Source: a virus (taxonomy: Duplodnaviria > Caudoviricetes). Taken from it: 64,000 nucleotides of DNA. Position 1 is the stretch's first letter. The number at the start of each line of letters is the position of its first letter. Below the pieces are notes generated by a model. That model had not been told where the DNA came from and searched no databases. It saw only the letters and a list, made by a program, of their open reading frames with translations. The stretch covers positions 1 through 64,000 of the IMG/VR virus record IMGVR_UViG_3300047160_005525; one strand, given 5' to 3'. Both the position numbers and the translations under genes were made by a program. Below are positions 14 through 49,830 of this stretch, one piece after another.

Positions 14-1045
14 ATGACTGCACCCTTCGCCATGCCAGACACCAGCTTGCGCCCGTCCGTGCGCTCGCTCGTACGCGCCTGCGCGGGCGCAGCGCTGTTT
101 GCTTGCGGCGGCATTCCCAAGAGAAAAACCGATGAATGGCGCGCTGACGCAGGCGCATGGTACTTGTTGCGTGGCGCAGTACCGCCGGCCTTAACGACCG
201 ACGCCGAGGCGCTGGTGCGGACAGTCGTGTCGGATTTGATTTCGACATTGGCACCGCAAAGCGTGGCGGCAAAAATTTTCGCTAGGGGTCTGCAGCTGAC
301 GTTCGGCCAGGCCGGGCAGATCAGCGTGCCGACGTTGCTTGGTGATCCGAGCTTGGCGAGCTTCGTGGCCGAGGGCTGGCCGATCCCCGTCGTCCAATCG
401 GCGCTGGTCGAGCCGCTCGTGACACTCGTGCCGACGAAGCTCGCCTGCATCGTCGTGCTGACCACGGAGATGGTGCAGTCATCGAACGTCGAGGCGCTCG
501 TCCTCGACGCCTTGACCAGATCGGCTGCGCTGGCGCTGGACTCAGCGCTCCTCGACGCCAATCCAGCTAGCAGCGCGCGTCCTCCTGGCTTGCGCTACGG
601 CATCGCGGCGATCGCCGCCGATTCATCGCCTGAGCCGCTCTCGGCGTTGGTTAATGATATTGGTGCTTTATATGCCGCCGTTGCGGCGACGGCGGCACGG
701 GCGCCAGTCTATGTGATGTCATCGTCGCGTGCGTTCAGCACGCGTTATCTGCTTCCGCCCGGTTGGGCACCGGCCGATTCGCTCGGCAGTTTTGCCTTGC
801 ACGGGACGACGGACATGATTGCGATGGCACCGAATGCGATCGCATCGGCCTACGGAAGCAATGTGGAAATCTCGGCTAGCCGTGAGAGCGCGCTGCAGAT
901 GGAGACCGCGCCGACGGATTTAGCCACGGGACCGACTCGGTCGACCTGGCAAACGGATTGCGTTGCGATCCGGCTGAAGCTCCCGGTGGCGTGGGCGCTA
1001 CGCACGCCAAGGGCTGTAAGTTGGCTTACCGCGACGAATTGGTGA
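14..1045 (+). CDS. HK97-fold major capsid protein paralog (second capsid-like gene)
   Basis: Aligns by eye along its length with the capsid half of 8289-10967 (GLQLTFG/GLSLSFG, SFVAEG/SFVGEG, RPPGL, WQTDCVAIRL/WQTDSIALRM, ends TNW/ITW). Confidence 0.85.
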   Translation: MTAPFAMPDTSLRPSVRSLVRACAGAALFACGGIPKRKTDEWRADAGAWYLLRGAVPPALTTDAEALVRTVVSDLISTLAPQSVAAKIFARGLQLTFGQAGQISVPTLLGDPSLASFVAEGWPIPVVQSALVEPLVTLVPTKLACIVVLTTEMVQSSNVEALVLDALTRSAALALDSALLDANPASSARPPGLRYGIAAIAADSSPEPLSALVNDIGALYAAVAATAARAPVYVMSSSRAFSTRYLLPPGWAPADSLGSFALHGTTDMIAMAPNAIASAYGSNVEISASRESALQMETAPTDLATGPTRSTWQTDCVAIRLKLPVAWALRTPRAVSWLTATNW

Positions 1046-1443: not shown

Positions 1444-2585
1444 CTGAATATCTCGTTGTCGACTATGACACCGGCGCGCCGCCCAATCAGGTGGAGAGCG
1501 ACCTGAACACGTACGGCCTCGACGGCTGGGAAGTCCGAACAGTTGACCTGACCAAGAGCAATAAGCGTCGCGTCATCTTCACGAAGAGCAGCATGGCATA
1601 CGCACCCGAAGCGCCGGCCGATGGCGTAACGTACGGCCGCAAGGACCTGAACTGGAATCCGGTCTTGCCGCTCACCGGTGGCGCGATGACGGGTGCGATC
1701 ACACTGCCCGGTGATCCAGTCAATCCTACTGACGCTGCCGACAAGAATTACATCGATGCGCAAATTTCCAGCCTTGGTGCCATTTATCTGAACTGGGTGC
1801 CTTATATCGGACCGCCGCAATCATTCGCCGCGCAGGATATGACGCGTGATGGCGATTGGACGATGGTTAGTAAGGTTGCTACCAGCGACCGTCCAGCGCC
1901 GCAGCCCAGTGGCGCAGAGATGGACTTGCTGCAGAACTGGAATCCAGCGCAGCAAAATATCCGCGCCAGCTTCTCGGTAGCCAATGAATTCACCACCAAC
2001 ACGGCTGGGTGGATCGATCAGTACGGCGTCGACATCAACGCGCAAAACGTTGGCGCTCCGCACGCGATTGCGCTGATGATCAACGGCGTTACGCGGGACA
2101 CCTTCTCGGCGACGCCGACCGCAGCCGGTATGAAGTGGATCAATATCACGCCGCTGCTGGTGCCGTCCGGAACGGTGATCCGTGTCACCGTGAACGTGAC
2201 GCAATTGGCTAACAACTTGATGTTTTACGATCAGCAAGTGGGCTTGTTCGCGACGCCGCCGACTTACTGCTCGCTGGCGCAGGGGTCGTTCAATGGTGGT
2301 CCGTTTAACTCAAACGCCTACGACTGCCATTGCATGTTCATCCCTGGCGCATACAGCGCAGACTGGGATGTGGTGGCCTTTGGCGGAACGGCAGCGGCTG
2401 GCGGCGGTGCTGTCACGACGATCGGCACTACGCCGGTCACAGTTGCGGGGTTGCCAGCTGGCGAAGCTGGCATGCGCGCTTTCGTCACCGATGCTATGAC
2501 CGCAGTGTTCAACGACATCGTCGCCGGCGGCGGAACGAACGGTGTGCCCGTATTTAGTGATGGTGTAGCCTGGAGAGTTGGATAA
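1440..2585 (+). CDS. fibre/decoration-like structural protein with foldon-like motif
   Basis: PEAPADGVTYGRKDLNW motif; LPLTGGAMTG..AADKNYID fibre repeat; beta-rich C-terminus. Confidence 0.65.
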   Translation: MTEYLVVDYDTGAPPNQVESDLNTYGLDGWEVRTVDLTKSNKRRVIFTKSSMAYAPEAPADGVTYGRKDLNWNPVLPLTGGAMTGAITLPGDPVNPTDAADKNYIDAQISSLGAIYLNWVPYIGPPQSFAAQDMTRDGDWTMVSKVATSDRPAPQPSGAEMDLLQNWNPAQQNIRASFSVANEFTTNTAGWIDQYGVDINAQNVGAPHAIALMINGVTRDTFSATPTAAGMKWINITPLLVPSGTVIRVTVNVTQLANNLMFYDQQVGLFATPPTYCSLAQGSFNGGPFNSNAYDCHCMFIPGAYSADWDVVAFGGTAAAGGGAVTTIGTTPVTVAGLPAGEAGMRAFVTDAMTAVFNDIVAGGGTNGVPVFSDGVAWRVG

Positions 2586-2586
2586 T

Positions 2587-2695
2587 GGCCGCCCCCTCCG
2601 GAGAGAGGGCGGCCCCCTGCCATGCCTTGCCCTACCCGGCCAGACCCGACCATGCCGAGCCAGACCTTGCCCTGCCGCAAGACTAAAAGTTTCAC
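2587..2695 (-). ncRNA. GGY/NN pentamer-array cassette A (12 units + hairpin + putative antisense promoter)
   Basis: 12 RCC-NN units at 2619-2678; hairpin GGCCGCCC/GGGCGGCC at 2587-2615; GTGAAA-N4-TAGTCT on - strand at 2680-2695. Confidence 0.75.
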
Positions 2696-3931
2696 ATGAC
2701 TGCAAAGCCGGAAGCAAAAGAATTGGAAGGAAAATGGACGGGTTTCGGTGATTTGCCGCAACTCGATTCAATCATTGCGTATGAATCCACCGATGATGGC
2801 TGGCGTGCTTTAACCGCGAATGGCGAGCTTTTCGAAATCCATGGTCAGGACGGCCGTAGGGCCGAGGTGCCCGATGACAACAATATCCTAGTCGTGCGCG
2901 CGGGCAAAGCGATCGGTCGCCGCGCTATCGAGCAGCGTGGCTTCAAGATCGACGATTACATCACGCATTTCGATCAGGCGGCGGCGCTATTTCGCAGCGG
3001 CAAGACGCAAGAAGCATTGGCTGAAAGCGACGCGGTCATAGCGCTGGCACCGACGCTGCGCGCGCGGTTCAATCGTGCGTTCGTTCTGCTGACGCTGGGT
3101 CAATGGACCGAGGGCTTGGCTGAATACGAGATATGCGAGCGTGACTCGCCGTTCCTGCGGCCGAAGACACGCGAAGCATTGCAAGCTGGCATCAAGCCGT
3201 GGCGCGGCGAAGACCTAACCGGTAAACGATTATTGCTTCTCCATGATCATGGCTTGGGCGATACGATCCAGATGCTGCGTTATGTGCCGGCACTGCAGGT
3301 CATGGGCGCCGATGTAGTGATGATGGTGCCGCCAGAGCTAATGCGGTTGGCCATGCAGGTAGGGACGGTGATAGCCAACACGATGCGGGTCATCGAAGCG
3401 GATTATGTCTGCTCGTTCCTGCATCTGCTGCATTGGCTGCGGGTAATGCCGGGGATGGTGGTTGGCAGTTCATATCTCAAAGTCGATCCGATGCTGCGAC
3501 ACAAGTGGGTCGAGCGGCTCGGTGGCAGCAAGCAGCTGCGCATCGGTCTCGCGTGGTCAGTCGGTGTGATTTATCAGGATGATTATCCGCGCGCGATTCC
3601 ATTCGATGAGCTTTTCGATAGCCTCGATGTCGAGACCGAGCTTTACAGCCTGCAGACGCAATCGCCGCCGGCGTTTTGGGAACAGGGCATCTATAGTTTC
3701 AAGTTCGAAGACTTCGCCGACTGTGCTGCGCTCATGACATGCATGGACAAAATCATCAGCGTCGATACCGCAGCATTGCATCTCGCGGGCGCGATCGGCC
3801 ATCCGCAGGTCTACGGACTGCTCTCGCATTGGCATAGCTGGAGATGGTTGGCAAATTGGTACTCAAACGTCAAACTATGCCGACAGACGACGCCGGGCGA
3901 TTGGAACAGCGCATTGGAGCAGATCAAGTGA
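2696..3931 (+). CDS. TPR + glycosyltransferase (GT9/heptosyltransferase-like) protein
   Basis: TPR helices (ARFNRAFVLLTLGQWTEG), PWRGEDLTGKRLLLLHDHGLGDTIQMLRY, ISVDTAALHLAGAIG. Confidence 0.85.
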   Translation: MTAKPEAKELEGKWTGFGDLPQLDSIIAYESTDDGWRALTANGELFEIHGQDGRRAEVPDDNNILVVRAGKAIGRRAIEQRGFKIDDYITHFDQAAALFRSGKTQEALAESDAVIALAPTLRARFNRAFVLLTLGQWTEGLAEYEICERDSPFLRPKTREALQAGIKPWRGEDLTGKRLLLLHDHGLGDTIQMLRYVPALQVMGADVVMMVPPELMRLAMQVGTVIANTMRVIEADYVCSFLHLLHWLRVMPGMVVGSSYLKVDPMLRHKWVERLGGSKQLRIGLAWSVGVIYQDDYPRAIPFDELFDSLDVETELYSLQTQSPPAFWEQGIYSFKFEDFADCAALMTCMDKIISVDTAALHLAGAIGHPQVYGLLSHWHSWRWLANWYSNVKLCRQTTPGDWNSALEQIK

Positions 3932-8288: not shown

Positions 8289-10967
8289 ATGCCATTACCC
8301 AAACCGCGTAAAGGGCAGAGTCAATCAGACTTCATGGCCGCCTGCATGCACGAAGCCTTTGGTTCTGACGCGCCGAAGGATCGTACACAACAGCAAGCGA
8401 TTGCAATGTGTATGGGGGCTTGGCGCGAAGCGCATCCATCGGCACCTCCGCCACCGAAGAAAGCCGATGACGACAAAGGCAAAGCCAAGAAACCTTACGG
8501 CGAGGTCGAGTACGCAGACCCTGGATATCAAGAGGACAAAAAGAAAAGATATCCGATCGACACCGAAGCTCACATCAGGGCCGCCTGGAACTATATTAAT
8601 AAGCCGAAGAATGCCGCGAAGTATTCGAGCGAAAATCTGGCAAAGGTTAAAGCCAAAATCGTTGCCGCTTGGAAGAAGGTGATCGACAAAGAGGGGCCGC
8701 CATCGGCTGCGGATAACAAGAAGCAGCAAATCGAACGCGTCATCAGGCGCTGGCATGACAAGTTCGGCCGTGATCCATCGGTGGCAATACTCGCACGTTT
8801 CAGTGCTGACGACATCCCTGAGCCGGATGACGATGAGAGCAAGTCGGATTTTCTTGACCGCTGCCAAGATGAAATCGGCGATGGTGACGATGACGACGAT
8901 GCCGAAGAAGCTTGCGAGCAGGCTTGGGAAGATGCGCAGGATGGCGATGACGAGGACGAAGAGCGGCGCGCGCCCGAGCTTGTACACAAGGCGCACAGCG
9001 GCGAGGTGGATGGCGTCGAGTTTGTGCTCTCGGACGACAGCATAGATCGCATGGGCGATGTAATTGTGAGTGAAGGATGGGACCTAGCTTCGTTCAAGCG
9101 CAATCCCGTCTGTCTCTTCAACCACTCTGCGATGCTGCCGATAGGTAAATGGGAAAATCTTCGCGTCGAAAAGGGTGAGTTGCGCGGTCATCTCCAACTT
9201 GCGCCCGAGGGTACGTCGCCGCGGATCGATGAAATTCGCAGGTTAGTCGATGCCGGCATTCTTCGTGCCGTCAGCGTTGGCTTCCGTCCGCTCGAAAGCG
9301 GTCCGCGACACGAAAACGGAAAAACGCTGGGAATGGTTTTTACGAAATCGGAACTGGTCGAGACATCTCTCGTATCGGTTCCGGCGAATCGCAATGCTCT
9401 CGCGGTTGCGAAGTCATTGCGTATTTCTCCTGCAACGCAGGACCTCGTCTTCGGCGGGAAAGCCTACAAAGACGAGACCACCGTGCGGCGCGGGCTAACT
9501 GGCGGGCATGCCAAAACTGCTCGAAGCGATGGAGGCGGCGTCATGTCGCTCACCCAACGAATCTCCGACTTGCAGACCTTGATGGTCGACAAGCGGGACG
9601 AACTGGAGTCGCACCTGGAAAAACAGGACGACTCGAATATCAGTGATAGTGATCTTGAGAAGACCCAAACGCTCAACGCCGAGATCGCGCAGCTGGAGAA
9701 GCAACACGCTGCGCTGGTCGAGGCGGAGAAGCGGTTGGCGAAGACGGCCGATGGCGGCGGCAATAGTGGTAGTCGCAGCCGGGCGCTGGCGACGACGGCG
9801 TTCACGCAGCCGAAGAACGACGGCGGTGTGACTGCTCCGCTCATCATTCCGAACGCGCGCAAGAAGGACCTCGATCCGATCGATCTGCTCGTGCGAGCGG
9901 GTACGATCAGCTACGTGTCGAAAGTCTGGAATCAGACCACGGAGAATACGCGGCTGAAGATCTATGGCGATGACGAGGGCACAAAGATCGTGTCCGACAT
10001 CATCTTACGCGCGCCATCGGCACCAGCAATGACGAACGTAGTTTCCTGGGCACAGGAACTCGTACAAGTTGTATATTCTGATCTGCTCAACCTGCTGTTA
10101 GCCAAGAGTATCTACACCAGACTTGCAGCGAAGGGGCTTTCGTTGAGCTTCGGCCGTGCGGGCAAGATCAACATTCCTGCTCGCTCGCGTACGCCGACTA
10201 TAGCTGGGAGCTTTGTGGGTGAGGGGCAGGCCATTCCAGTTCGAATGGGCGCTTTTACAACGCAGACTCTCGTTCCGAAGAAAATGGCCGTCATCAGCGT
10301 GTGGTCTCGTGAGATGGACGAGCATAGCATTCCTGCGATTGAAGGCGTGCTACGCGAAGCAGTGCAAGAAGATACCAGCGTCGCGCTCGACAGTGTACTC
10401 ATTGATACGAATGCGGCGACTGCGATCCGGCCGCCTGGTCTGCTCAATGGCGTAACGGCTACAACTGCGACGGCGGGCGGTGGCCTCGACGCGTTGATCG
10501 GTGACATCAAGGCGCTGGTCGGTGCGTTGTCGACGAATACCTATGGCAATGTTCGCAGTCCGGTATGGATCGCAAATCAAGTCGACATGCTGTCGGCTGG
10601 GTTGGCCATGGCGGCGAATACCGGTATCTTCCCGTTCCGTGACGAAGTTGCGGCCGGGCGGCTGGCGAATATACCTATTATCGACAGCGCGACGGTTCCG
10701 GCTAAAACCCTTATCTTGGTTGACGCTGCGGACTTTGTCGCGGTGGGCGGGGAAGCTCCCCGATTCGAGTTAAGCGATCAAGCGACTCTTCATATGGACG
10801 ATTCCGCGCCTGCAGAACTTGTTGGCACGGGCAGTCCTGGAGCGGTTGCTTCACCGCAGCGCTCGCTCTGGCAAACCGACTCGATCGCGCTTCGGATGAT
10901 CATGCCAATGAATTGGTGGCAGCGCCGTCCGGGTACGATTGCCTACACGACCGGAATCACCTGGTAA
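8289..10967 (+). CDS. HK97-type prohead protease - major capsid fusion with N-terminal accessory domains (DUF6582-like)
   Basis: Protease motifs DRMGDVI, LFNHS, LRAVSVGFRP, ELVETSLVSVPAN; C-terminal HK97 capsid; YADPGYQEDKKKRYPIDTEAHIRAAWNYIN recalled as DUF6582-like. Confidence 0.92.
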   Translation: MPLPKPRKGQSQSDFMAACMHEAFGSDAPKDRTQQQAIAMCMGAWREAHPSAPPPPKKADDDKGKAKKPYGEVEYADPGYQEDKKKRYPIDTEAHIRAAWNYINKPKNAAKYSSENLAKVKAKIVAAWKKVIDKEGPPSAADNKKQQIERVIRRWHDKFGRDPSVAILARFSADDIPEPDDDESKSDFLDRCQDEIGDGDDDDDAEEACEQAWEDAQDGDDEDEERRAPELVHKAHSGEVDGVEFVLSDDSIDRMGDVIVSEGWDLASFKRNPVCLFNHSAMLPIGKWENLRVEKGELRGHLQLAPEGTSPRIDEIRRLVDAGILRAVSVGFRPLESGPRHENGKTLGMVFTKSELVETSLVSVPANRNALAVAKSLRISPATQDLVFGGKAYKDETTVRRGLTGGHAKTARSDGGGVMSLTQRISDLQTLMVDKRDELESHLEKQDDSNISDSDLEKTQTLNAEIAQLEKQHAALVEAEKRLAKTADGGGNSGSRSRALATTAFTQPKNDGGVTAPLIIPNARKKDLDPIDLLVRAGTISYVSKVWNQTTENTRLKIYGDDEGTKIVSDIILRAPSAPAMTNVVSWAQELVQVVYSDLLNLLLAKSIYTRLAAKGLSLSFGRAGKINIPARSRTPTIAGSFVGEGQAIPVRMGAFTTQTLVPKKMAVISVWSREMDEHSIPAIEGVLREAVQEDTSVALDSVLIDTNAATAIRPPGLLNGVTATTATAGGGLDALIGDIKALVGALSTNTYGNVRSPVWIANQVDMLSAGLAMAANTGIFPFRDEVAAGRLANIPIIDSATVPAKTLILVDAADFVAVGGEAPRFELSDQATLHMDDSAPAELVGTGSPGAVASPQRSLWQTDSIALRMIMPMNWWQRRPGTIAYTTGITW

Positions 10968-14445: not shown

Positions 14446-14447
14446 AA

Positions 14448-14571
14448 GAGGGCCGACTCTTCGGATGAAAAGTCAGCCCTCACCTCGCCATGCCTTGCCT
14501 AGCCTCGCCGTGCCTCGCCCTGCCTGGCCAAGCCTGGCCTCGCCAAGACCATGTTAGTCTAGCATTTTCAC
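14448..14571 (-). ncRNA. GGY/NN pentamer-array cassette B (13 units)
   Basis: Hairpin 14448-14481; RCC-NN units 14482-14546; GTGAAA-N4-TAGACT on - strand at 14556-14571; NN code matches 14416-14445. Confidence 0.8.
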
Positions 14572-17937: not shown

Positions 17938-20031
17938 ATGCCTATCTCTTTCGCAAACATTCCATCTAATATTAAGGTCCCTTTATATTGGGTGGAAGTG
18001 GATAACGCGAATCAAGCGTAGGTCCCTTTGTCGAGCAATCGACATCGAACATCGGGTGAACTCGGGGAAACTCCAGATCGGACAATCCCGAGCCAAGCTG
18101 CCGCAACGGCAGAAGGTGTAACGACTAGAGCGCAAGCTCGTAGGATCAAGCGATCCGAAGCGCCCGACGCCCCAAGTGGGCGGTGATATAGTCTCCTCCA
18201 CATAGGAATATGTGGCAGTCCGCAAAAGGACGGTAGCGAGAGTAGCGAACTCGCTGCGAAGATTAGGCCCTCAATGGCAGGTTTGCCGACGCTCAATCTG
18301 CGAGCGTTGCTGATCGGCACGATGAATGCTGACGGCACTGGCACTCAAGACATCCCGGTTGCCATAGGCACGCAAGCATCAGCCGACGAGAAGTTCGGCG
18401 TAGGCTCTGAACTCGCGCAGATGTTCAAAGCCTACTTTAAAAATAATTTTGCCAATGAGGTGTGGGCGGGGCCCGTGGCTCCGTCTACTAACTCGCAAGC
18501 AGCAAGTGGCACGATCACGGTGACGACGCCGCCGAGCGAGGCCGGAACGATCAATCTCTACATCGCCGGTCATCATGTGGCGGTCAACGTCGGCATGAGT
18601 GATACGGCTGAGCAGGTTGCGCTTGAAATCGCTAACGCGATTAATGCAATCGAACCCGCTTTGCCGGTGACAGCGGCAGCAGGGACCGGAGCGACAACTA
18701 CGGGAACTGGCACCGGCAATTCGACGGGCACGACCAGTCTGACCGTCTCGTCGTCAACCGGTACCATCGCGATCGGCGCGACCGTGACTGGCACCGGCGT
18801 TCCTGCCAACACGACGATTGCGAGTCAGACCTCGGGCACGATCGGCGGCGATGGCGTGTACGTCACCAGTAACCCGACGACGCTGTCGGCGGCAGCGATC
18901 ACGACCACGCTGACCAGCAATACGAACGTGGTCACGGTGACTTGCACCTTCCTGGGCGTCAACGGCAACGAGATTCGCATCGAGCAGGACTACTACGGAA
19001 TGCTCGGCGGCGAACGGCCGGTGACGGGGCTGGTGCTGACGTTGCCGGCGACAAACTTCTTGACCGGCGGTGTCGGCACGCCGGACTTTACCAACTTGAT
19101 CATAGCCATGGGCGAGACGCCGTTTGAGTATCTCTGCGTGCCTTACTGGGATTCCAACACCTTGCTCGCGTTTGAGGAGGAGATGGGATTCGGAGATTCG
19201 GGTCGCTGGGGATGGCAGCGTCAGCTGTTCGGCCATGTGTTCCTTGCCAAGCGCGGTCAATACTCGGACCTCGTCACCTGGGGCTTGACCCGCAACAGCG
19301 GATTGATCTCGGTGCTGGCGTTCGAGAATCCCACGCCGACGCCGATGTACGAGATGGCGGCGGCTTACACGGCGAAGGCGCAGCGCGCGCTCAGCAACGA
19401 CCCGGCCAGGCCGCTGCAGACCTTGCAACTCAACGGCACGCTGCCGGCGAAGCTGCACGATCGCTTCAACTTCGTCGAACTCAACTCCCTCGCCTCAAGC
19501 GGCCTTGCCATCCAGAAGTGTTGGGAAGGCTCGGGCATGTCGCAAATCGCCCGCGAGCAAACAACCTACCAACTTAATCTTTATGGCCAGGGCGATGACG
19601 CGTACGAACTCGTCACGACGCTCGCGACGTTGGCGAAGATTCTCCGCAATCAACGTCACGCGATCACGAGCAAGTATCCCAGACACAAACTTGCGAATGA
19701 CGGAACACGCTTCGGGCCAGGGCAGGCGATTGTGACCCCGGCTATTATCAAAGCCGAATTAGTCGCACAATACCGGATGGATATGTGGGACGGCCTCGTC
19801 GAGGACGTCGCCGACTTCAAGCGCTTCCTCCTGGTGGAAAGGGACCCGGATAACCCTAATAGGTTAAACGTGCTTTATCCGCCTGACTTGATAAATCAGC
19901 TGCGAATCTTCGCCGTGCTCGCACAATTTAGACTCCAGTACGATCGTGGGATCGATGTTGCCATTATCGGCTATACGGGACTCGCAGGAATCGCTGGACC
20001 TGGTGGTGCCTTAACTGGTACTGGTGGCTAA
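17938..20031 (+). CDS. contractile tail sheath (Mu gpL-like), interrupted by a group I intron at 18004-18267
   Basis: Exon 1 MPISFANIPSNIKVPLYWVEVD + exon 2 PSMAGLPTL...; sheath motifs YTAKAQRALSNDPARPLQTL, VERDPDNPNRLNVLYPPDLINQLRIFA. Confidence 0.92.
18004..18267 (+). mobile_element. ORF-less group I intron (264 nt)
   Basis: U at 5' splice site pairs with IGS GGUCC; P3 TCGGGTG/CGCCCGA; P4 CTCGGG/CCCGAG; P7 GACTA/TAGTC; P9 CCACATA-GGAA-TATGTGG; terminal G; in-frame TAG removed by splicing. Confidence 0.9.
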
Positions 20032-33773: not shown

Positions 33774-35225
33774 ATGCACATTTCGAATCCAGCGGCAACG
33801 AACTTCCGCGGCTACGCTGCCGGCGGTTCTCGCTCGATGATCGGCGAAGTCGATGACTCCTCGCTCATGCAAACGCTGGGCAAAGGCGGCGGCATGAAGG
33901 GCGAAAGCTTCTCTCAGGGAGGTGGCGGCGGCGCAGATTGGAAGGGTCCGGAATCGCCGCAGAATTACGGCTTCACCAGCGTGGTCGGCGACGCGATGAA
34001 AGGCGCGATGGGATCGATCAAGCAGGGTGCCGAAGGCTTCATGAGCTACATCGGAGGCAACCGTTCTTTCCCGGTCATGGGCATGATGGACGATCGCCGA
34101 CATCGCCTGAAGAATTTGGCGAAGGACGCAGCCAAGGGCGCGGTCGCTCTATTCGGCCAGAAGGAATGGGGCCAGCAATTTTTGAATACCGAAGACGGGA
34201 TGTTCATGACCGGTAACATGGAGAAGAAAATACGCCACGCATTGACGCAAAATCAAAATGGCCAAAAGCAACAAGCTGGCGGCTCGGCACCACAAGGTGC
34301 AGTGAGAGCAGAAGATGGTCGCTTGGTCATTCGCTCGAAGTCTGGCGTTGAGTTTGAGGTTGAAGAATTCTTTTGGTCAGATGAACAAGGAAGGCGTCTT
34401 GAACCGCAACCGCTGGCTGGCGGCGGCGGAGGTGGTGGAGGTGGCGGTGGCGGAGGTGGCGGCGAATCTAACAGTAAGCCGACAGGACAGAAGACACTGC
34501 ACAAAGAGGACAGCGACACGTTCACCGACATGAGCAAGCAAGAGATTCGCTCACGTCGCGGCAACGGTTACATGAATATCAAGGACGACATCTCGCAAAC
34601 CTATCATAAGGACCCGACGCACGACACGCGCTGCGACGATTCTCACGTCCACATCGGCTGGGGTGGCGGCAAGATATGGGTCGATGGCGGCTGCTGGTCG
34701 ACGGTGCCGATCCGGATCAGGAATTGCAACGACAGGGATCAGAGCCAAAGCAGCAAACCTCCTGCCGGTGGAGGCGGCGGCGGTACGCCAAGAGACGTTC
34801 CAGAAGCTCCGTTGGTACATCCACCACCCACGTCTGGGCCGCCCGCTTACTTCACCGGTTCACCGCTATCGATCGATGACAATGCGACGCTGGCATTGGC
34901 ATTCAGCGATCCGCTCGCGGTCTCTACTGTAGTCGCAGATGTGCGTCGGCTTGAGCCTCCGACTATAACGCAACTGGCCGTCTCTCCTCTGATAATCAAA
35001 TACGTCGATCCGATTTACATCGATACCACTCAAAATAACTCGCTCGCGTTGAAGTTCAAAGACCCGCTCTATCTCGATGTCGATGGCTCTCTGACGTCGA
35101 CCGGCGGCGGCGTGAGCGGCGTTCCCGAGGCACCAAATGATGGGCTCATGTATGGAAGGCAAAGTTTAAACTGGGCGCGCGCGCTGGCGATTACCAATGA
35201 TATTCTAGATGGGGGCAACTTTTAG
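33774..35225 (+). CDS. baseplate spike (Mu gp45-like) with C-terminal extension and foldon-like motif
   Basis: VDDSSLMQT, PQNYGFTSV, DDRRHRLKNL..GAVALF; PEAPNDGLMYGRQSLNW. Confidence 0.8.
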   Translation: MHISNPAATNFRGYAAGGSRSMIGEVDDSSLMQTLGKGGGMKGESFSQGGGGGADWKGPESPQNYGFTSVVGDAMKGAMGSIKQGAEGFMSYIGGNRSFPVMGMMDDRRHRLKNLAKDAAKGAVALFGQKEWGQQFLNTEDGMFMTGNMEKKIRHALTQNQNGQKQQAGGSAPQGAVRAEDGRLVIRSKSGVEFEVEEFFWSDEQGRRLEPQPLAGGGGGGGGGGGGGGGESNSKPTGQKTLHKEDSDTFTDMSKQEIRSRRGNGYMNIKDDISQTYHKDPTHDTRCDDSHVHIGWGGGKIWVDGGCWSTVPIRIRNCNDRDQSQSSKPPAGGGGGGTPRDVPEAPLVHPPPTSGPPAYFTGSPLSIDDNATLALAFSDPLAVSTVVADVRRLEPPTITQLAVSPLIIKYVDPIYIDTTQNNSLALKFKDPLYLDVDGSLTSTGGGVSGVPEAPNDGLMYGRQSLNWARALAITNDILDGGNF

Positions 35226-46005: not shown

Positions 46006-46197
46006 ATGCGTAAGCTTTTAGACGAAGCCTTGAATGACGCCTTCAAAGTGCAGTTCAATAACTTGTTCAATGTTCTTTGCGCAGCCCCAGATCATGATCC
46101 GGCAATTCAACGATTTCATCGCGGTTTAAAAAGGGCCGTTGAGATGCGCCGTCATGCCACGAGGGTTATCGAGCACATGCTTGAGGAAACCAAATGA
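46006..46197 (+). CDS. hypothetical protein
   Basis: Coupled to the endolysin; resembles the C-terminal half of the upstream gene. Confidence 0.55.
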   Translation: MRKLLDEALNDAFKVQFNNLFNVLCAAPDHDPAIQRFHRGLKRAVEMRRHATRVIEHMLEETK

Positions 46198-47798
46198 TCA
46201 TCGCGCTGAGTTCAGGCCATGCTCGTGATTGCCCAGGCGCTTCGGACATCATCGATGAGGTCACGGAGGCGCGACGCGTGGTCGAGCGTACAGCGCAATA
46301 TCTTCGCACCGCTGGCATCGATGTCCGCGTTTTCCATGACAACGAATCGACATCTCAGGACGAGAATCTAGACGCCATCATTGACTGGACGAATGCCCAA
46401 GATGCCGATCTCGCGGTCTCGATTCATTTCAATTCGAACGGGACCACGTCTCAGCCGGTCGGTACTGAATGTTGGTACAAGACGCAACGAGAGTTAGCGG
46501 CTGACGTCGCTGCCGAGATTGCTATATCTTCAGGGCTTATCGATCGAGGCGGCAAACAGACCGATTCTTTGGCATTTTTGAATGGGACCGAAGCTCCAGC
46601 GATCTTGGTAGAGGTCTGTTTCGTAAATTCACAGGCGGACTGCACAACCTATCGACAGAAATTCGATGACGTTTGTCGCGCTCTCGCCGGTGCGATATCG
46701 AGCGAGACAATCCCGCCGAGCGAGCCGGGTGAACGTGCCCCGCGTCCTGAATGGCCGCAATTCCCCGAAGCGCCAGAGGGACCACCATGGGACAGCAGAC
46801 CTGAAGAAGTTCCGATCGAGGATCGACCGACACTACGGCGCGGCGATGAAGGCCCTCATGTGCTCGACATGCAGCGCATGATCCCGCGGTTCACCGGTGA
46901 CTTCGACGGCGACTTTGGACCGACGACGGAAGACAATGTTCTGCGCTATCAGGACTCGCGCGGGCTCGATGCTGATGGCATCTGCGGGCCGATTATGTGG
47001 GAGGCGCTGTACACGCACAAGCTTCCTGTGCCGCCTCCGCCGGCTCCGCCTGGTGCGCTTACGCCCGAGCAGCAGGTCGTGATCATGCGGCTCGCGAACG
47101 ATTCTGCGATTGCTGATTACTATTGGCAGGATCGTGGTATTGCGCCAAACGGTTGGATCACTGGCATGGCATTGGCGTTCGGGCAAACTTACAAGAAATG
47201 GAAGGTTGGTCATCCGGCTGCACTCGAGATGGCGAAAGCGCGCATGGACACCGACAAGGACGTGCTCAATCTCTATCGCGATGAGTTCGAGCAGCTTGGT
47301 ATGCCAAATGAAGATGATGGGGCTGATACGTTGCGGCATCTCTTTGCCCTTCTTATCGGGCACGGCATGAGAGAGAGTTCGGGCGCCTACTGCGAAGGTC
47401 GAGACATGAGCGCCGACAATGTCGAAAGCGATACGGCTGAAGCTGGCGCCTTCCAGACTTCATACAACGCGCACACCGCGAGCGATCCGGAATTCGACAA
47501 CCTGATGGATGAATATCTGCACGGTCTATCGCCGGGTTATGAAGATGCTTTCTCGGAGGGCGTATCATGTTCGTCGGACGATTGGGAAAATTACGGCAGT
47601 CCAGAAGAGCGTGGCTATCAATTTCAGCGGCTGAGCAAAGACGCACCTGCGATGGCTGCCGAGCACTGCGCACTTACCTCACGAAATCTCGCGAATCATT
47701 ACGGGCCTTATCTGCGTCACGAGACCGAACTCAAGGAGGACGCAGATAACATGCTTGAGGCTGTGGCGGCTTATCTTGACGAAACCGAGCAAGCATGA
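46194..47798 (+). CDS. endolysin: N-acetylmuramoyl-L-alanine amidase (Amidase_3) + peptidoglycan-binding domain + C-terminal domain
   Basis: SSGH..DEVTE, VSIHFNS, ILVEVCFVNS; DGDFGPTTEDNVLRYQDSRGLDADGICG. Confidence 0.92.
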   Translation: MIIALSSGHARDCPGASDIIDEVTEARRVVERTAQYLRTAGIDVRVFHDNESTSQDENLDAIIDWTNAQDADLAVSIHFNSNGTTSQPVGTECWYKTQRELAADVAAEIAISSGLIDRGGKQTDSLAFLNGTEAPAILVEVCFVNSQADCTTYRQKFDDVCRALAGAISSETIPPSEPGERAPRPEWPQFPEAPEGPPWDSRPEEVPIEDRPTLRRGDEGPHVLDMQRMIPRFTGDFDGDFGPTTEDNVLRYQDSRGLDADGICGPIMWEALYTHKLPVPPPPAPPGALTPEQQVVIMRLANDSAIADYYWQDRGIAPNGWITGMALAFGQTYKKWKVGHPAALEMAKARMDTDKDVLNLYRDEFEQLGMPNEDDGADTLRHLFALLIGHGMRESSGAYCEGRDMSADNVESDTAEAGAFQTSYNAHTASDPEFDNLMDEYLHGLSPGYEDAFSEGVSCSSDDWENYGSPEERGYQFQRLSKDAPAMAAEHCALTSRNLANHYGPYLRHETELKEDADNMLEAVAAYLDETEQA

Positions 47799-47911
47799 GA
47801 AACGGCCGCCCATTTTGTGACGACCGTTTCTCCCCTGCCATGCCTTACCGGGCCATGCCGCGCCCCGCCAGACCGGACCTTGCCACGCCCAACCGGGCCA
47901 TGCCGCGCCCT
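47797..47911 (-). ncRNA. GGY/NN pentamer-array cassette C (15 units)
   Basis: Hairpin 47797-47832; units 47837-47911; NN code matches the endolysin at 47136-47174. Confidence 0.82.
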
Positions 47912-48231
47912 GGCTAGCGACCTGGCGTTTTAGCGCTCGGTCGCTGCGACATCTTATCATCATTTACGTTTTAGAAAGTGAGCCGCCGCCGAGTGAGCCG
48001 AAGGTGGGTTAGCGTCGAGTTCGCAATCACGCCGGCAATGCTTGCAGCAGCGACAGTTCTTTTTTGGCTTGAGCGGACACGAGCGCGGCAGCACCGAATT
48101 TCGGAGCTTGCATTGCGGGCAGGATTTCGCGACGGGCGGCATGGAAATGGCAATATCAGACATGCGCAACGACTGAATTATTTAACTTCGCAACTCAATT
48201 AAATAATTTCGTAATTCACAGGAGGGATCAA

Positions 48232-48333
48232 ATGACTGAAGAACAAATGAATGCCGCCAAGATCGCCGGCGTTGTTGCCTTGATTGTTATAGCGGTCGCG
48301 CTGTTTGGTTGGCTGATGGGCTGGTGGGGCTAA
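48232..48333 (+). CDS. 33-aa single-TM peptide
   Basis: AGGAGG RBS; MTEEQMNAAKIAGVVALIVIAVALFGWLMGWWG. Confidence 0.7.
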   Translation: MTEEQMNAAKIAGVVALIVIAVALFGWLMGWWG

Positions 48334-48334
48334 C

Positions 48335-48724
48335 ATGGCTCGCATACCGGCTCATCTGATTCGTCGTCTAAAACAAGAGGAGAGATGCATGAGCTATACG
48401 CTTCCAAGCGGGATGCAAGTTACTTGCCAAATTTCTTACGTTGATGCCGCGGGCAATCCCGCTGTCGTTGATGGTGATGTGGCGTGGTCATCGAGCGATG
48501 AAACTAAGCTCGTCGTCTTTGTCAACTCACAGGATTCGACAAAGGTCGTCCTGCGAACTGTCGGGCCAGTCGGCCTCGTTCAAGTCAAAGCAACGGCTGA
48601 TGCTGATTTAGGCGCGGGCGTTCGCGAACTTGTCACTACCGCCGATGTCGACATTATCGCCGGTGAGGCAGTTGCCGGCATGATTTCACCAATCGGTCCC
48701 GCCGAGCCAATCCCCGCGGCATAA
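48335..48724 (+). CDS. Ig-like beta-sandwich protein
   Basis: YVDAAGNPAVVDGDVAWSSSD..VQVKATADADLG. Confidence 0.65.
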   Translation: MARIPAHLIRRLKQEERCMSYTLPSGMQVTCQISYVDAAGNPAVVDGDVAWSSSDETKLVVFVNSQDSTKVVLRTVGPVGLVQVKATADADLGAGVRELVTTADVDIIAGEAVAGMISPIGPAEPIPAA

Positions 48725-48726
48725 AT

Positions 48727-48833
48727 GAGAGCGAGAGCTTTCGCTCCCGCTCTCCCCTACCTTGCCTCGCCGGGCCGTACCATACCATTCCTTGCCCGAC
48801 CACACCCCGCCGCGCCCCACCAGACCTCGCCGC
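48727..48833 (-). ncRNA. GGY/NN pentamer-array cassette D (15 units)
   Basis: Hairpin 48727-48754; units 48759-48833 (one TCC variant); NN code matches 48602-48640. Confidence 0.82.
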
Positions 48834-48850
48834 GGTTAATCTCTAGTATC

Positions 48851-48937
48851 ATGACCCAATCTTGGCGCCAAATTCTGATCTGGAGTGCGTTATTGGTCGC
48901 TGGTATTGCATTGATCATGCTAGCGTTCGGGGGCTGA
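48851..48937 (+). CDS. 28-aa single-TM peptide
   Basis: MTQSWRQILIWSALLVAGIALIMLAFGG. Confidence 0.5.
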   Translation: MTQSWRQILIWSALLVAGIALIMLAFGG

Positions 48938-48939
48938 TC

Positions 48940-49131
48940 ATGGCCGATGATCAGGGTTATGCAGCGACGCTTGAGGGTTTCGTTGCGCGCTTTGATGATC
49001 TCGCCATCAAATTGCGCGAGGCCGCAAACGCGCAGGACTATGATGAGGTCTCCGATCTGGTCGACGAGCTTCTCGAAGATCTCGAACGAGCGGCCGACTT
49101 CATCAAGAAAAAACGCGAGGAGCGGGGATAA
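48940..49131 (+). CDS. small helical hypothetical protein
   Basis: Last + strand ORF before the terminator. Confidence 0.6.
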   Translation: MADDQGYAATLEGFVARFDDLAIKLREAANAQDYDEVSDLVDELLEDLERAADFIKKKREERG

Positions 49132-49228
49132 TTCTGGGGATGTTTTGCGATTTGCTATTTCACAGGAGCGTGGATGCGATAGACTGATTCTGTAGCGTTG
49201 AGTCCTGTTCGTTACACTCGTCTAACTG

Positions 49229-49269
49229 AACCCGGTCGAGCTTGAAGTGGAGGCTCGGCCGGGTTTTTT
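49229..49269 (+). terminator. intrinsic terminator ending the late region
   Basis: AACCCGGTCGAGC/GCTCGGCCGGGTT stem + T tract at the convergent boundary. Confidence 0.8.
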
Positions 49270-49392
49270 ATTTAATCCTCGGTGGGGAGTAGATCGCCGA
49301 TTTCATCATCGGGATCGGGTGCGGCTGAAGGATTAAGCTGATCGAGCAGCTTACGTAACGCGCGGGCCGGTGACACTGCTTGACTTAATAAT

Positions 49393-49500
49393 GAGAGCGA
49401 GAGCTTTTGGCCCTCGCTCTCCCTTGCCTCGCCGCGCCGCGCCAAGCCTTGCCGTGCCTGGCCTAGCCACGCCCTACCCCGCCTAGCCGCGCCCCGCCAC
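49393..49500 (-). ncRNA. GGY/NN pentamer-array cassette E (15 units)
   Basis: Hairpin 49393-49421, nearly identical to that of D; units 49426-49500; NN code matches 49600-49635. Confidence 0.8.
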
Positions 49501-49515
49501 ATTAAAAATAAAATC

Positions 49516-49830
49516 TCATCGCTCTTTCCCCAGCCATCGATAAGCTTGATGCCGCAAACTACGTGGCACAGCACGCGCTTCGACGCGAATATATGAGCTT
49601 GTGGCTTTAGAAGGCAATCGATACCAAACGAGTTTACTCGATTTCCAGGTTCGGTGAGCAACGTAGACTTGGCCATTGCGCGGTCGGCTGACGAAGAGAC
49701 CGTGTAAAGCATGGCGAGAAGTGCGGGGAAGCGCAGCTGGTGGGGCTGTGTGTGCTACGCTCCCCCTGGCCGGCATCACGGGGGGCTGTTGCAATGCCGG
49801 GTCCAAATTGTAGTCGTTAGAGAAGTCCAT
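49516..49830 (-). CDS. hypothetical protein (its homolog is the apparent target of cassette E)
   Basis: ATG start; codon-register match with the cassette E code. Confidence 0.55.
   Translation of the reverse strand: MDFSNDYNLDPALQQPPVMPARGSVAHTAPPAALPRTSRHALHGLFVSRPRNGQVYVAHRTWKSSKLVWYRLPSKATSSYIRVEARAVPRSLRHQAYRWLGKER

Follow-up and report, generated by a model that had tools for sequence, protein, structure and literature searches.

The closest described counterparts of the locus analysed here are the VIPR systems, which combine Vipr, a small Cas7-like protein, with vrRNAs made of 9-16 YNNGG repeats and a structured 3' tail (bioRxiv 10.64898/2026.04.26.720920). According to the published code, the NN pairs bind dsDNA two bases at a time and skip one base, usually the codon wobble position (10.64898/2026.04.26.720920), while each repeat of the RNA is covered by one Vipr protomer, which hides its GGY, and the filament blocks transcription (VIPR preprints). 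The published targets lie within coding sequences, on either strand, in competing phages. A natural target has been called at an NN match of at least 80%, a line that is a bioinformatic convention rather than a measured tolerance, and no self match attained it in the published systems. Published structures resolve the Vipr complex first at its tail-proximal end, and the footprint of one published guide spans just six units. The studied example is the type II VIPR of Escherichia phage SUSP1 (bioRxiv 10.64898/2026.04.26.720920, 10.64898/2026.04.26.720927); an accessory gene, vap, is predicted to interact with DNA (VIPR preprints). In addition, solo or orphan vrRNAs occur on VIPR-null phages and satellites, at one or two per phage, and target vipr, other vrRNAs, satellites and host REP decoys; their self scores are lower than their rival scores, which has been read as avoidance of autoimmunity (bioRxiv 10.64898/2026.10.15.759431).

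We analysed bases 1-64000 (the window) of the 76,776-b IMG/VR record IMGVR_UViG_3300047160_005525, the genome of a temperate tailed phage with integrase, portal, head, sheath, tail-fibre and endolysin genes. The 76.8-kb genome contains 15 arrays in a single orientation, each of 11-18 units with CC at a period of 5; in all 15, R precedes CC and the GGY is kept while the NN pairs vary. Five of these arrays are dispersed (cassettes A-E), one stands before a recE-like exonuclease gene and nine are in tandem at the contig end (Table 1). The tandem units each start with an identical CCCTGCC leader and are separated by a 16-nt AT-rich spacer, and the contig end falls inside the ninth of them (G9). 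The record is thus probably broken within its VIPR locus.

Table 1 Positions of the endolysin gene, the elements of cassette C and the other arrays; numbering follows the window unless marked as genome.
Feature	Position	Strand	Description
Endolysin gene, 534 aa	46194..47798	+	amidase_3, PG_binding_1, ~250-aa C-terminal domain
Phage's own near-target site	47136..47174	+	codons for GIAPNGWITGMAL; 20/26 guide positions (77%)
Cassette C	47797-47914	-	16 YNNGG units, then 3' hairpin
3' tail hairpin, predicted vrRNA C	47797..47832	-	36-nt inverted repeat, 14-bp stem
Three tail-proximal units	47835..47849	-	NN = CT, AT, TT on + strand
Guide part, vrRNA C	47850..47914	-	13 YNNGG units (units 5-17 of 17)
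Cassette A	2583..2676	-	hairpin + 13 units
Cassette B	14446..14544	-	hairpin + 14 units
Cassette D	48727..48836	-	architecture as cassette C; directly 3' of 129-aa gene 48335-48724
Cassette E	49393..49498	-	hairpin + 16 units
Array F	genome 71358-71439 (outside window)		directly upstream of RecE/YqaJ-like exonuclease + Rad52-like annealing-protein pair
Tandem cluster	genome 75994-76776 (L046:12994-13776; outside window)		nine vrRNA-like units

In all five dispersed cassettes the last GG is followed immediately on its 3' side by a hairpin, with a stem of 12-15 bp and a different sequence each time; as minus-strand RNA each of the five is more stable by 2-8 kcal/mol, since A-C mismatches of the plus strand turn into G-U pairs. 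This fold preference argues that the functional RNA is (GGY-NN)n followed by the hairpin. In cassette C the hairpin comes directly after the endolysin stop codon (47798) and has a predicted energy of -22.9 kcal/mol as minus-strand RNA versus -14.6 as plus-strand RNA, with a z-score of -5.5 against shuffled sequences. The plus strand at 47830-47914 consists of 17 units of NNRCC, which the minus strand reads as GGY-NN. The three hairpin-proximal units, with the pairs CT, AT and TT, agree with 0/6 bases at seven of ten related endolysin sites and with at most 1/6 at the other three, and their pairs belong to a small set common to all 15 arrays. They look like a handle and not like guide, as judged from these comparisons, and the first-pass annotation of this DNA, which was made from the sequence by eye, was justified in leaving them out. 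Read as NN pairs with a one-base skip, the remaining part, guide C, spells G-[IM]-A-P-[SR]-G-[FL]-T-[HQ]-G-[IM]-A-L. A comparison of 46194-49600 with annotated phages by blastn gave no match, and Rfam returned just one weak ar14-like match, on a terminator. The ~300 bp that follow cassette C (47915-48232) contain no convincing ORF.

Cassette C shares with the VIPR of SUSP1 the GGY/NN pentamers, the 3' tail, the one-base-skip code, coding targets in competing phages and a self match below 80%. Its 16 tandem units lie within the published range, its natural targets reach at least 80% only under a skip of one base, and its best self match stays at 77%. The SUSP1 tail is a pseudoknot, whereas here it is a plain GC-rich hairpin; such a structured tail is present in the five dispersed cassettes, while the tandem units share an AT-rich separator instead. 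Published VIPR guides flank vipr, whereas here five stand singly through the late-gene region and the 76,776-b record holds no vipr gene. As in the solo vrRNAs, the guides occur without vipr in the same genome and self scores are lower than rival scores; solo vrRNAs number one or two per phage, however, while the present phage has 15, of which the two that were decoded (C and D) fit late genes in relatives. With class 1 CRISPR-Cas systems the VIPR-type locus has in common a guide RNA, with bases flipped out at regular intervals, that carries a backbone of Cas7-like RAMP protein, and it differs in its non-contiguous 2-of-5 code, in having neither repeats and spacers nor adaptation genes, and in being virus-borne. 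Unlike in published VIPR, guide C adjoins its carrier's own allele of the predicted target, an endolysin.

The endolysin gene carries the Pfam entries PF01520 and PF01471 and matches PHROG 435 endolysin (E 6e-46), with PHROG 33367 over residues 280-529. The motif matched by guide C sits in its C-terminal domain. The first-pass annotation had proposed that cassette C spells a variant of a motif of this adjacent endolysin, and on recomputation its 13 pairs agree, as it had counted, with the first two codon bases of the own site in 8/13 pairs exactly and in 20/26 bases. The mismatches fall in units 5, 7, 8 and 9, with one further base in unit 13, in keeping with the central clustering that it had described. 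Over the whole 76,776-b genome and both strands this is the best match of guide C, the next best being 17/26 at three places. When unit order was shuffled and a local score applied, 5% of the shuffles did as well as the observed self match at some place in the genome. By itself the self match is therefore borderline and suggestive, and the case becomes decisive through the homologous sites of relatives.

Hundreds of homologues of the C-terminal domain were found, and the site was scored in 116 of the best 120. All 116 follow the pattern G-x-[AGS]-P-x-G-x-x-x-G-x-A-x, with the consensus G[VI]APTGFTQGMAL, and the motif targeted by guide C is the most conserved one of this domain in the endolysins of related soil phages. 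With the best-case codon choice, 110 of the 116 homologues reach at least 21/26 and five reach 25/26. The search for GIAPSGFTQGMAL-type alleles that the first-pass annotation had proposed was positive, since GIAPTGFTQGMAL, GVAPTGFTQGMAL and GIAPSGFTEGMAL are all natural alleles, the first two of which represent the family consensus. GVAPTGFTQGMAL is the commonest (17 proteins among the 116), and GIAPTGFTQGMAL, which fits at 25/26 at best, occurs in four proteins including the two closest relatives (74-75% identical). The phage's own allele GIAPNGWITGMAL was seen once in this set of 116 and belongs to the six with the poorest guide fit; owing to four central amino-acid changes, it fits less well than the alleles of the relatives.

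At the DNA level, 13 related phage or metagenome contigs carry a homologous site that matches the guide at 19-25/26. Ten of these are IMG/VR loci, which score 19-24/26 (22-24/26 in eight), and a pattern scan of metagenome contigs added L084 at 25/26 and L085 and L086 at 24/26; an exact 26/26 allele was found in neither IMG/VR nor JGI metagenome contigs. At the sites that score 22-25/26 the fit of guide C is 85-96%, versus 77% in self, and the matched sites are the homologous endolysin codons, in frame. When both strands of 449 kb of related DNA were scanned, a one-base skip gave a maximum of 24, while skips of 0, 2 and 3 reached 17-18, the reversed guide reached 18 and none of 300 shuffled guides reached 21. 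As a negative control, the same DNA was searched with all 15 guides, 13 of which gave no match of at least 83%. Self is mismatched by five units, of which three agree perfectly with the family consensus (F, T, Q), a fourth fits consensus and self equally, and the fifth depends solely on the leucine codon family. This agreement of the self-mismatching units with the consensus argues that the guide is written against the family consensus and not against the carrier's copy. The first-pass annotation argued for recognition of dsDNA rather than mRNA, which agrees with the published VIPR code, in which two bases are read, the wobble base is skipped and either strand can be targeted. As the code it had read by eye is the published one, it had in effect derived the VIPR code.

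Altogether, we consider it likely that cassette C is a VIPR-type guide-RNA gene aimed at the endolysin of related phages, with a poorer fit to self. As judged from the alleles compared, guide C probably marks rivals and spares its carrier.

No vipr was found in the 76.8-kb record, either by tblastn or with an HMM built from the Viprs of eight relatives (best E 0.08); because the record ends inside an array, this result applies to the record and does not amount to absence from the phage itself. The array leader is shared by 16 IMG/VR loci, 14 of which encode a protein of 188-221 aa between the arrays. A model of this protein matches Csm3/Cas7 (Foldseek E 5e-7, probability 1.0), and its motifs LLxHN, RxRPxF and GxGD[YWF]R are positioned like H17, R138 and D177-W178-R179 of SUSP1 Vipr. 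By its modelled fold and these motifs, the protein between the arrays of these relatives is a Cas7-like Vipr. The vipr gene of the relatives is usually followed by a ParB-like gene; the one similarity of relatives' vap to the present record, a match to its 514-aa gene (tblastn E 0.004), is too weak to call homology. The vipr gene of this phage may lie in the unassembled gap of the genome; alternatively, by analogy with what is published for VIPR-null phages, its guides may rely on a Vipr provided in trans.

Several proteins of the record were considered as Vipr candidates and rejected. The 398-aa gene adjoining the array cluster is DGQHR/ParB-like, the 265-aa gene is methyltransferase-like by eye (motifs DGNAGDGEG and SDPCGP), and the 360-aa gene, with a weak Rad52-like fold, is the partner of the RecE-like exonuclease. 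PDB sequence searches with the 398-aa and 265-aa proteins came back empty, relatives of the 398-aa gene were sought and none found, and comparisons of ten more unannotated ORFs with Pfam and PHROGs were uninformative. Together with the 514-aa gene, whose product is ParB_N-DUF5131, the 398-aa and 265-aa genes form a run on the minus strand beside the array cluster (genome 72361-75904) that may be a DNA-modification module.

Other explanations were weighed as well. If the NN pairs were meaningless spacers in a protein-binding or structural repeat, a self match that 5% of shuffles reach would be no surprise; matches of 22-25/26 at the homologous codons of independent relatives, in frame, only with a 1-nt skip and beyond any shuffle, of which none reaches 21, reduce the probability of such a coincidence to almost nil. 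A TRAP-like ring-protein site, a Rho-loading site, G-quadruplex or i-motif DNA and short proline-rich ORFs starting from an ATG beside each hairpin were dropped on the same grounds, namely that the NN code matches relatives in frame. Alternatively, vrRNA C might serve to lower or time the expression of its own phage's endolysin and lysis genes, with the better fit to relatives a by-product of shared ancestry of the site. The self site is indeed the best match in the own genome, with 8/13 units perfect, and the RNA would be antisense to the late operon at 660 bp from the site; however, the family consensus is matched in full by three of the five self-mismatching units, and a fourth suits it as well as it suits self, such that the guide looks selected on non-self rather than on self, and the published systems hold no self match of at least 80%. 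We regard a self-regulatory role as very unlikely.

It is also conceivable that the phage has no vipr and that its 15 solo vrRNAs, as 'guns for hire', load onto the Vipr of a related element and are turned against it. The lack of vipr in the record, the five arrays of the 56-kb relative G001, in which the part examined likewise holds no vipr, and the solo vrRNAs already in print for VIPR-null phages and satellites (bioRxiv 10.64898/2026.10.15.759431) speak for such borrowing. The contig end inside G9, by contrast, means that vipr is perhaps just unassembled, in relatives the gene lies between arrays of exactly this kind, and published VIPR-null phages have one or two solo guides and not 15. 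Moreover, the target-bearing relatives have neither arrays nor vipr in the parts examined and would thus supply no protein. On balance, borrowing of the protein appears possible but rather unlikely. Reciprocal targeting was looked for with the array of G001, which has no match in this genome or in the relatives' loci.

In our model of cassette C as a guide against related phages, its minus strand would be transcribed into a predicted RNA of 16 YNNGG units and a 3' hairpin. Vipr protomers, whether encoded at the unassembled genome end or by another element, would coat vrRNA C, one per repeat, and present its NN pairs to dsDNA. In a cell that also holds the genome of a related phage, the filament would then bind the conserved site in that phage's endolysin gene and block transcription through this part of the rival's late operon, be it in co-infection, in superinfection of a lysogen or in infection of a cell with a related prophage, while the own site, with 6/26 mismatches clustered centrally, would be bound poorly. 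We infer the production and loading of the RNA, the silencing of the rival and the protection of self by the 6/26 mismatches. Because the self site retains four perfect units at the tail-proximal end and three at the far end, and one published footprint comprises just six units, self-immunity would not be assured; the evidence that the own allele has escaped the guide is modest, the allele lying within the lowest 5% of the family. Since endolysin works in trans, silencing the rival's copy in a co-infected cell would not on its own prevent the rival's release. A pay-off is more plausible via polarity on downstream late genes, or for a carrier prophage facing a superinfecting relative.

If this reading is right, guide C and natural alleles at 25/26, 24/26 and 22/26 versus the own allele at 20/26 make a test case for self/non-self discrimination by VIPR, and a late lysis gene is added to the predicted target classes. 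The word endolysin is absent from the main texts of the two VIPR preprints searched for it, and single guides inserted beside the carrier's own target allele were not found in those texts. The VIPR class itself is already in print (2026 preprints); an endolysin target and insertion-like single-guide cassettes beside a poorly fitting own allele may be new.

In its matches cassette D resembles cassette C, if less clearly. Its 13 distal units match homologues of the adjoining 129-aa gene in three relatives at 21-23/26; at the own site of the phage (48602-48640) they reach 21/26 (81%), which is borderline against the 80% self line. In the related locus L044 the local gene order is alike, arrays are absent and both junctions are closed, the endolysin stop overlapping the next start and the homologue of the D-target gene overlapping its downstream neighbour at an ATGA. 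In view of these closed junctions, cassette D looks like a discrete insert, and from the same comparison cassette C is probably one as well. L044 carries three genes (147, 79 and 125 aa) in the interval from the endolysin to the D-target gene, and the lysis cassettes of the two phages differ. For cassettes A, B and E we found no significant match in the own genome or in the relatives that hold the neighbouring genes, and the companion claims of the first-pass annotation for B and E were not borne out. A sigma-70-like site is present on the minus strand at 49617-49588, upstream of cassette E.

Cassettes C and D, of ~110-120 bp each, directly follow a gene whose consensus allele in relatives would be marked by the guide, and the linked own allele fits the guide less, clearly for C and slightly for D. 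Free-standing homing endonuclease genes of T-even phages, such as those for SegG and MobE, are selfish intergenic inserts, each adjoining a gene in which related phages hold its recognition site and the carrier's copy differs there. By analogy, one may speculate that C and D are mobile units of a guide plus a resistant allele, an RNA-guided counterpart of homing endonucleases or toxin-antidote drives, an idea that we hold to be doubtful. In contrast to those genes, the cassettes would recognize their target through RNA; they have no associated nuclease, and gene conversion forms no part of the evidence. Under such a scheme, recombination in mixed infections would transfer a cassette to rivals along with its poorly matching allele, or recombinants with both would have a selective advantage, and the phage's RecE-like/Rad52-like module, itself behind a guide array, could do the recombining. 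Should the scattering of guides as small inserts beside the homologues of their own targets prove general, it would inform how guides spread and how carriers stay safe.

Several further observations concern the arrays and their surroundings. The RecE-Rad52-like pair is found beside arrays in seven of the leader-sharing loci (L061, L062, L066, L068, L070, L071 and L072). In the VIPR locus of G006 (L074:7144-9314), arrays are followed by a DnaA-C-like HTH gene, an array, vipr (212 aa), arrays, a ParB-like gene and arrays; in L073 arrays are interleaved with genes as in L074. The first gene of the window (14-1045) is a paralogue of the C-terminal capsid part of an 892-aa protease-head fusion (8289-10967), to which it has ~30% identity in relatives' tblastn matches, and the relatives of this gene have neither arrays nor vipr upstream of it. 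Guide D has seven consecutive perfect units (14/14) against the phage's own tail sheath gene (18274-20031), antisense, at window position 19301-19351 on the minus strand; as a rough estimate ~0.1 such matches would be expected by chance over 15 guides, and the match could be chance or a real second site. Finally, guide G3 of the tandem cluster has self matches of 21/30 at window position 2943-2987 on the plus strand and of 20/30 at 33982-34026 on the minus strand, with a local score equalled by just 2% of shuffles.
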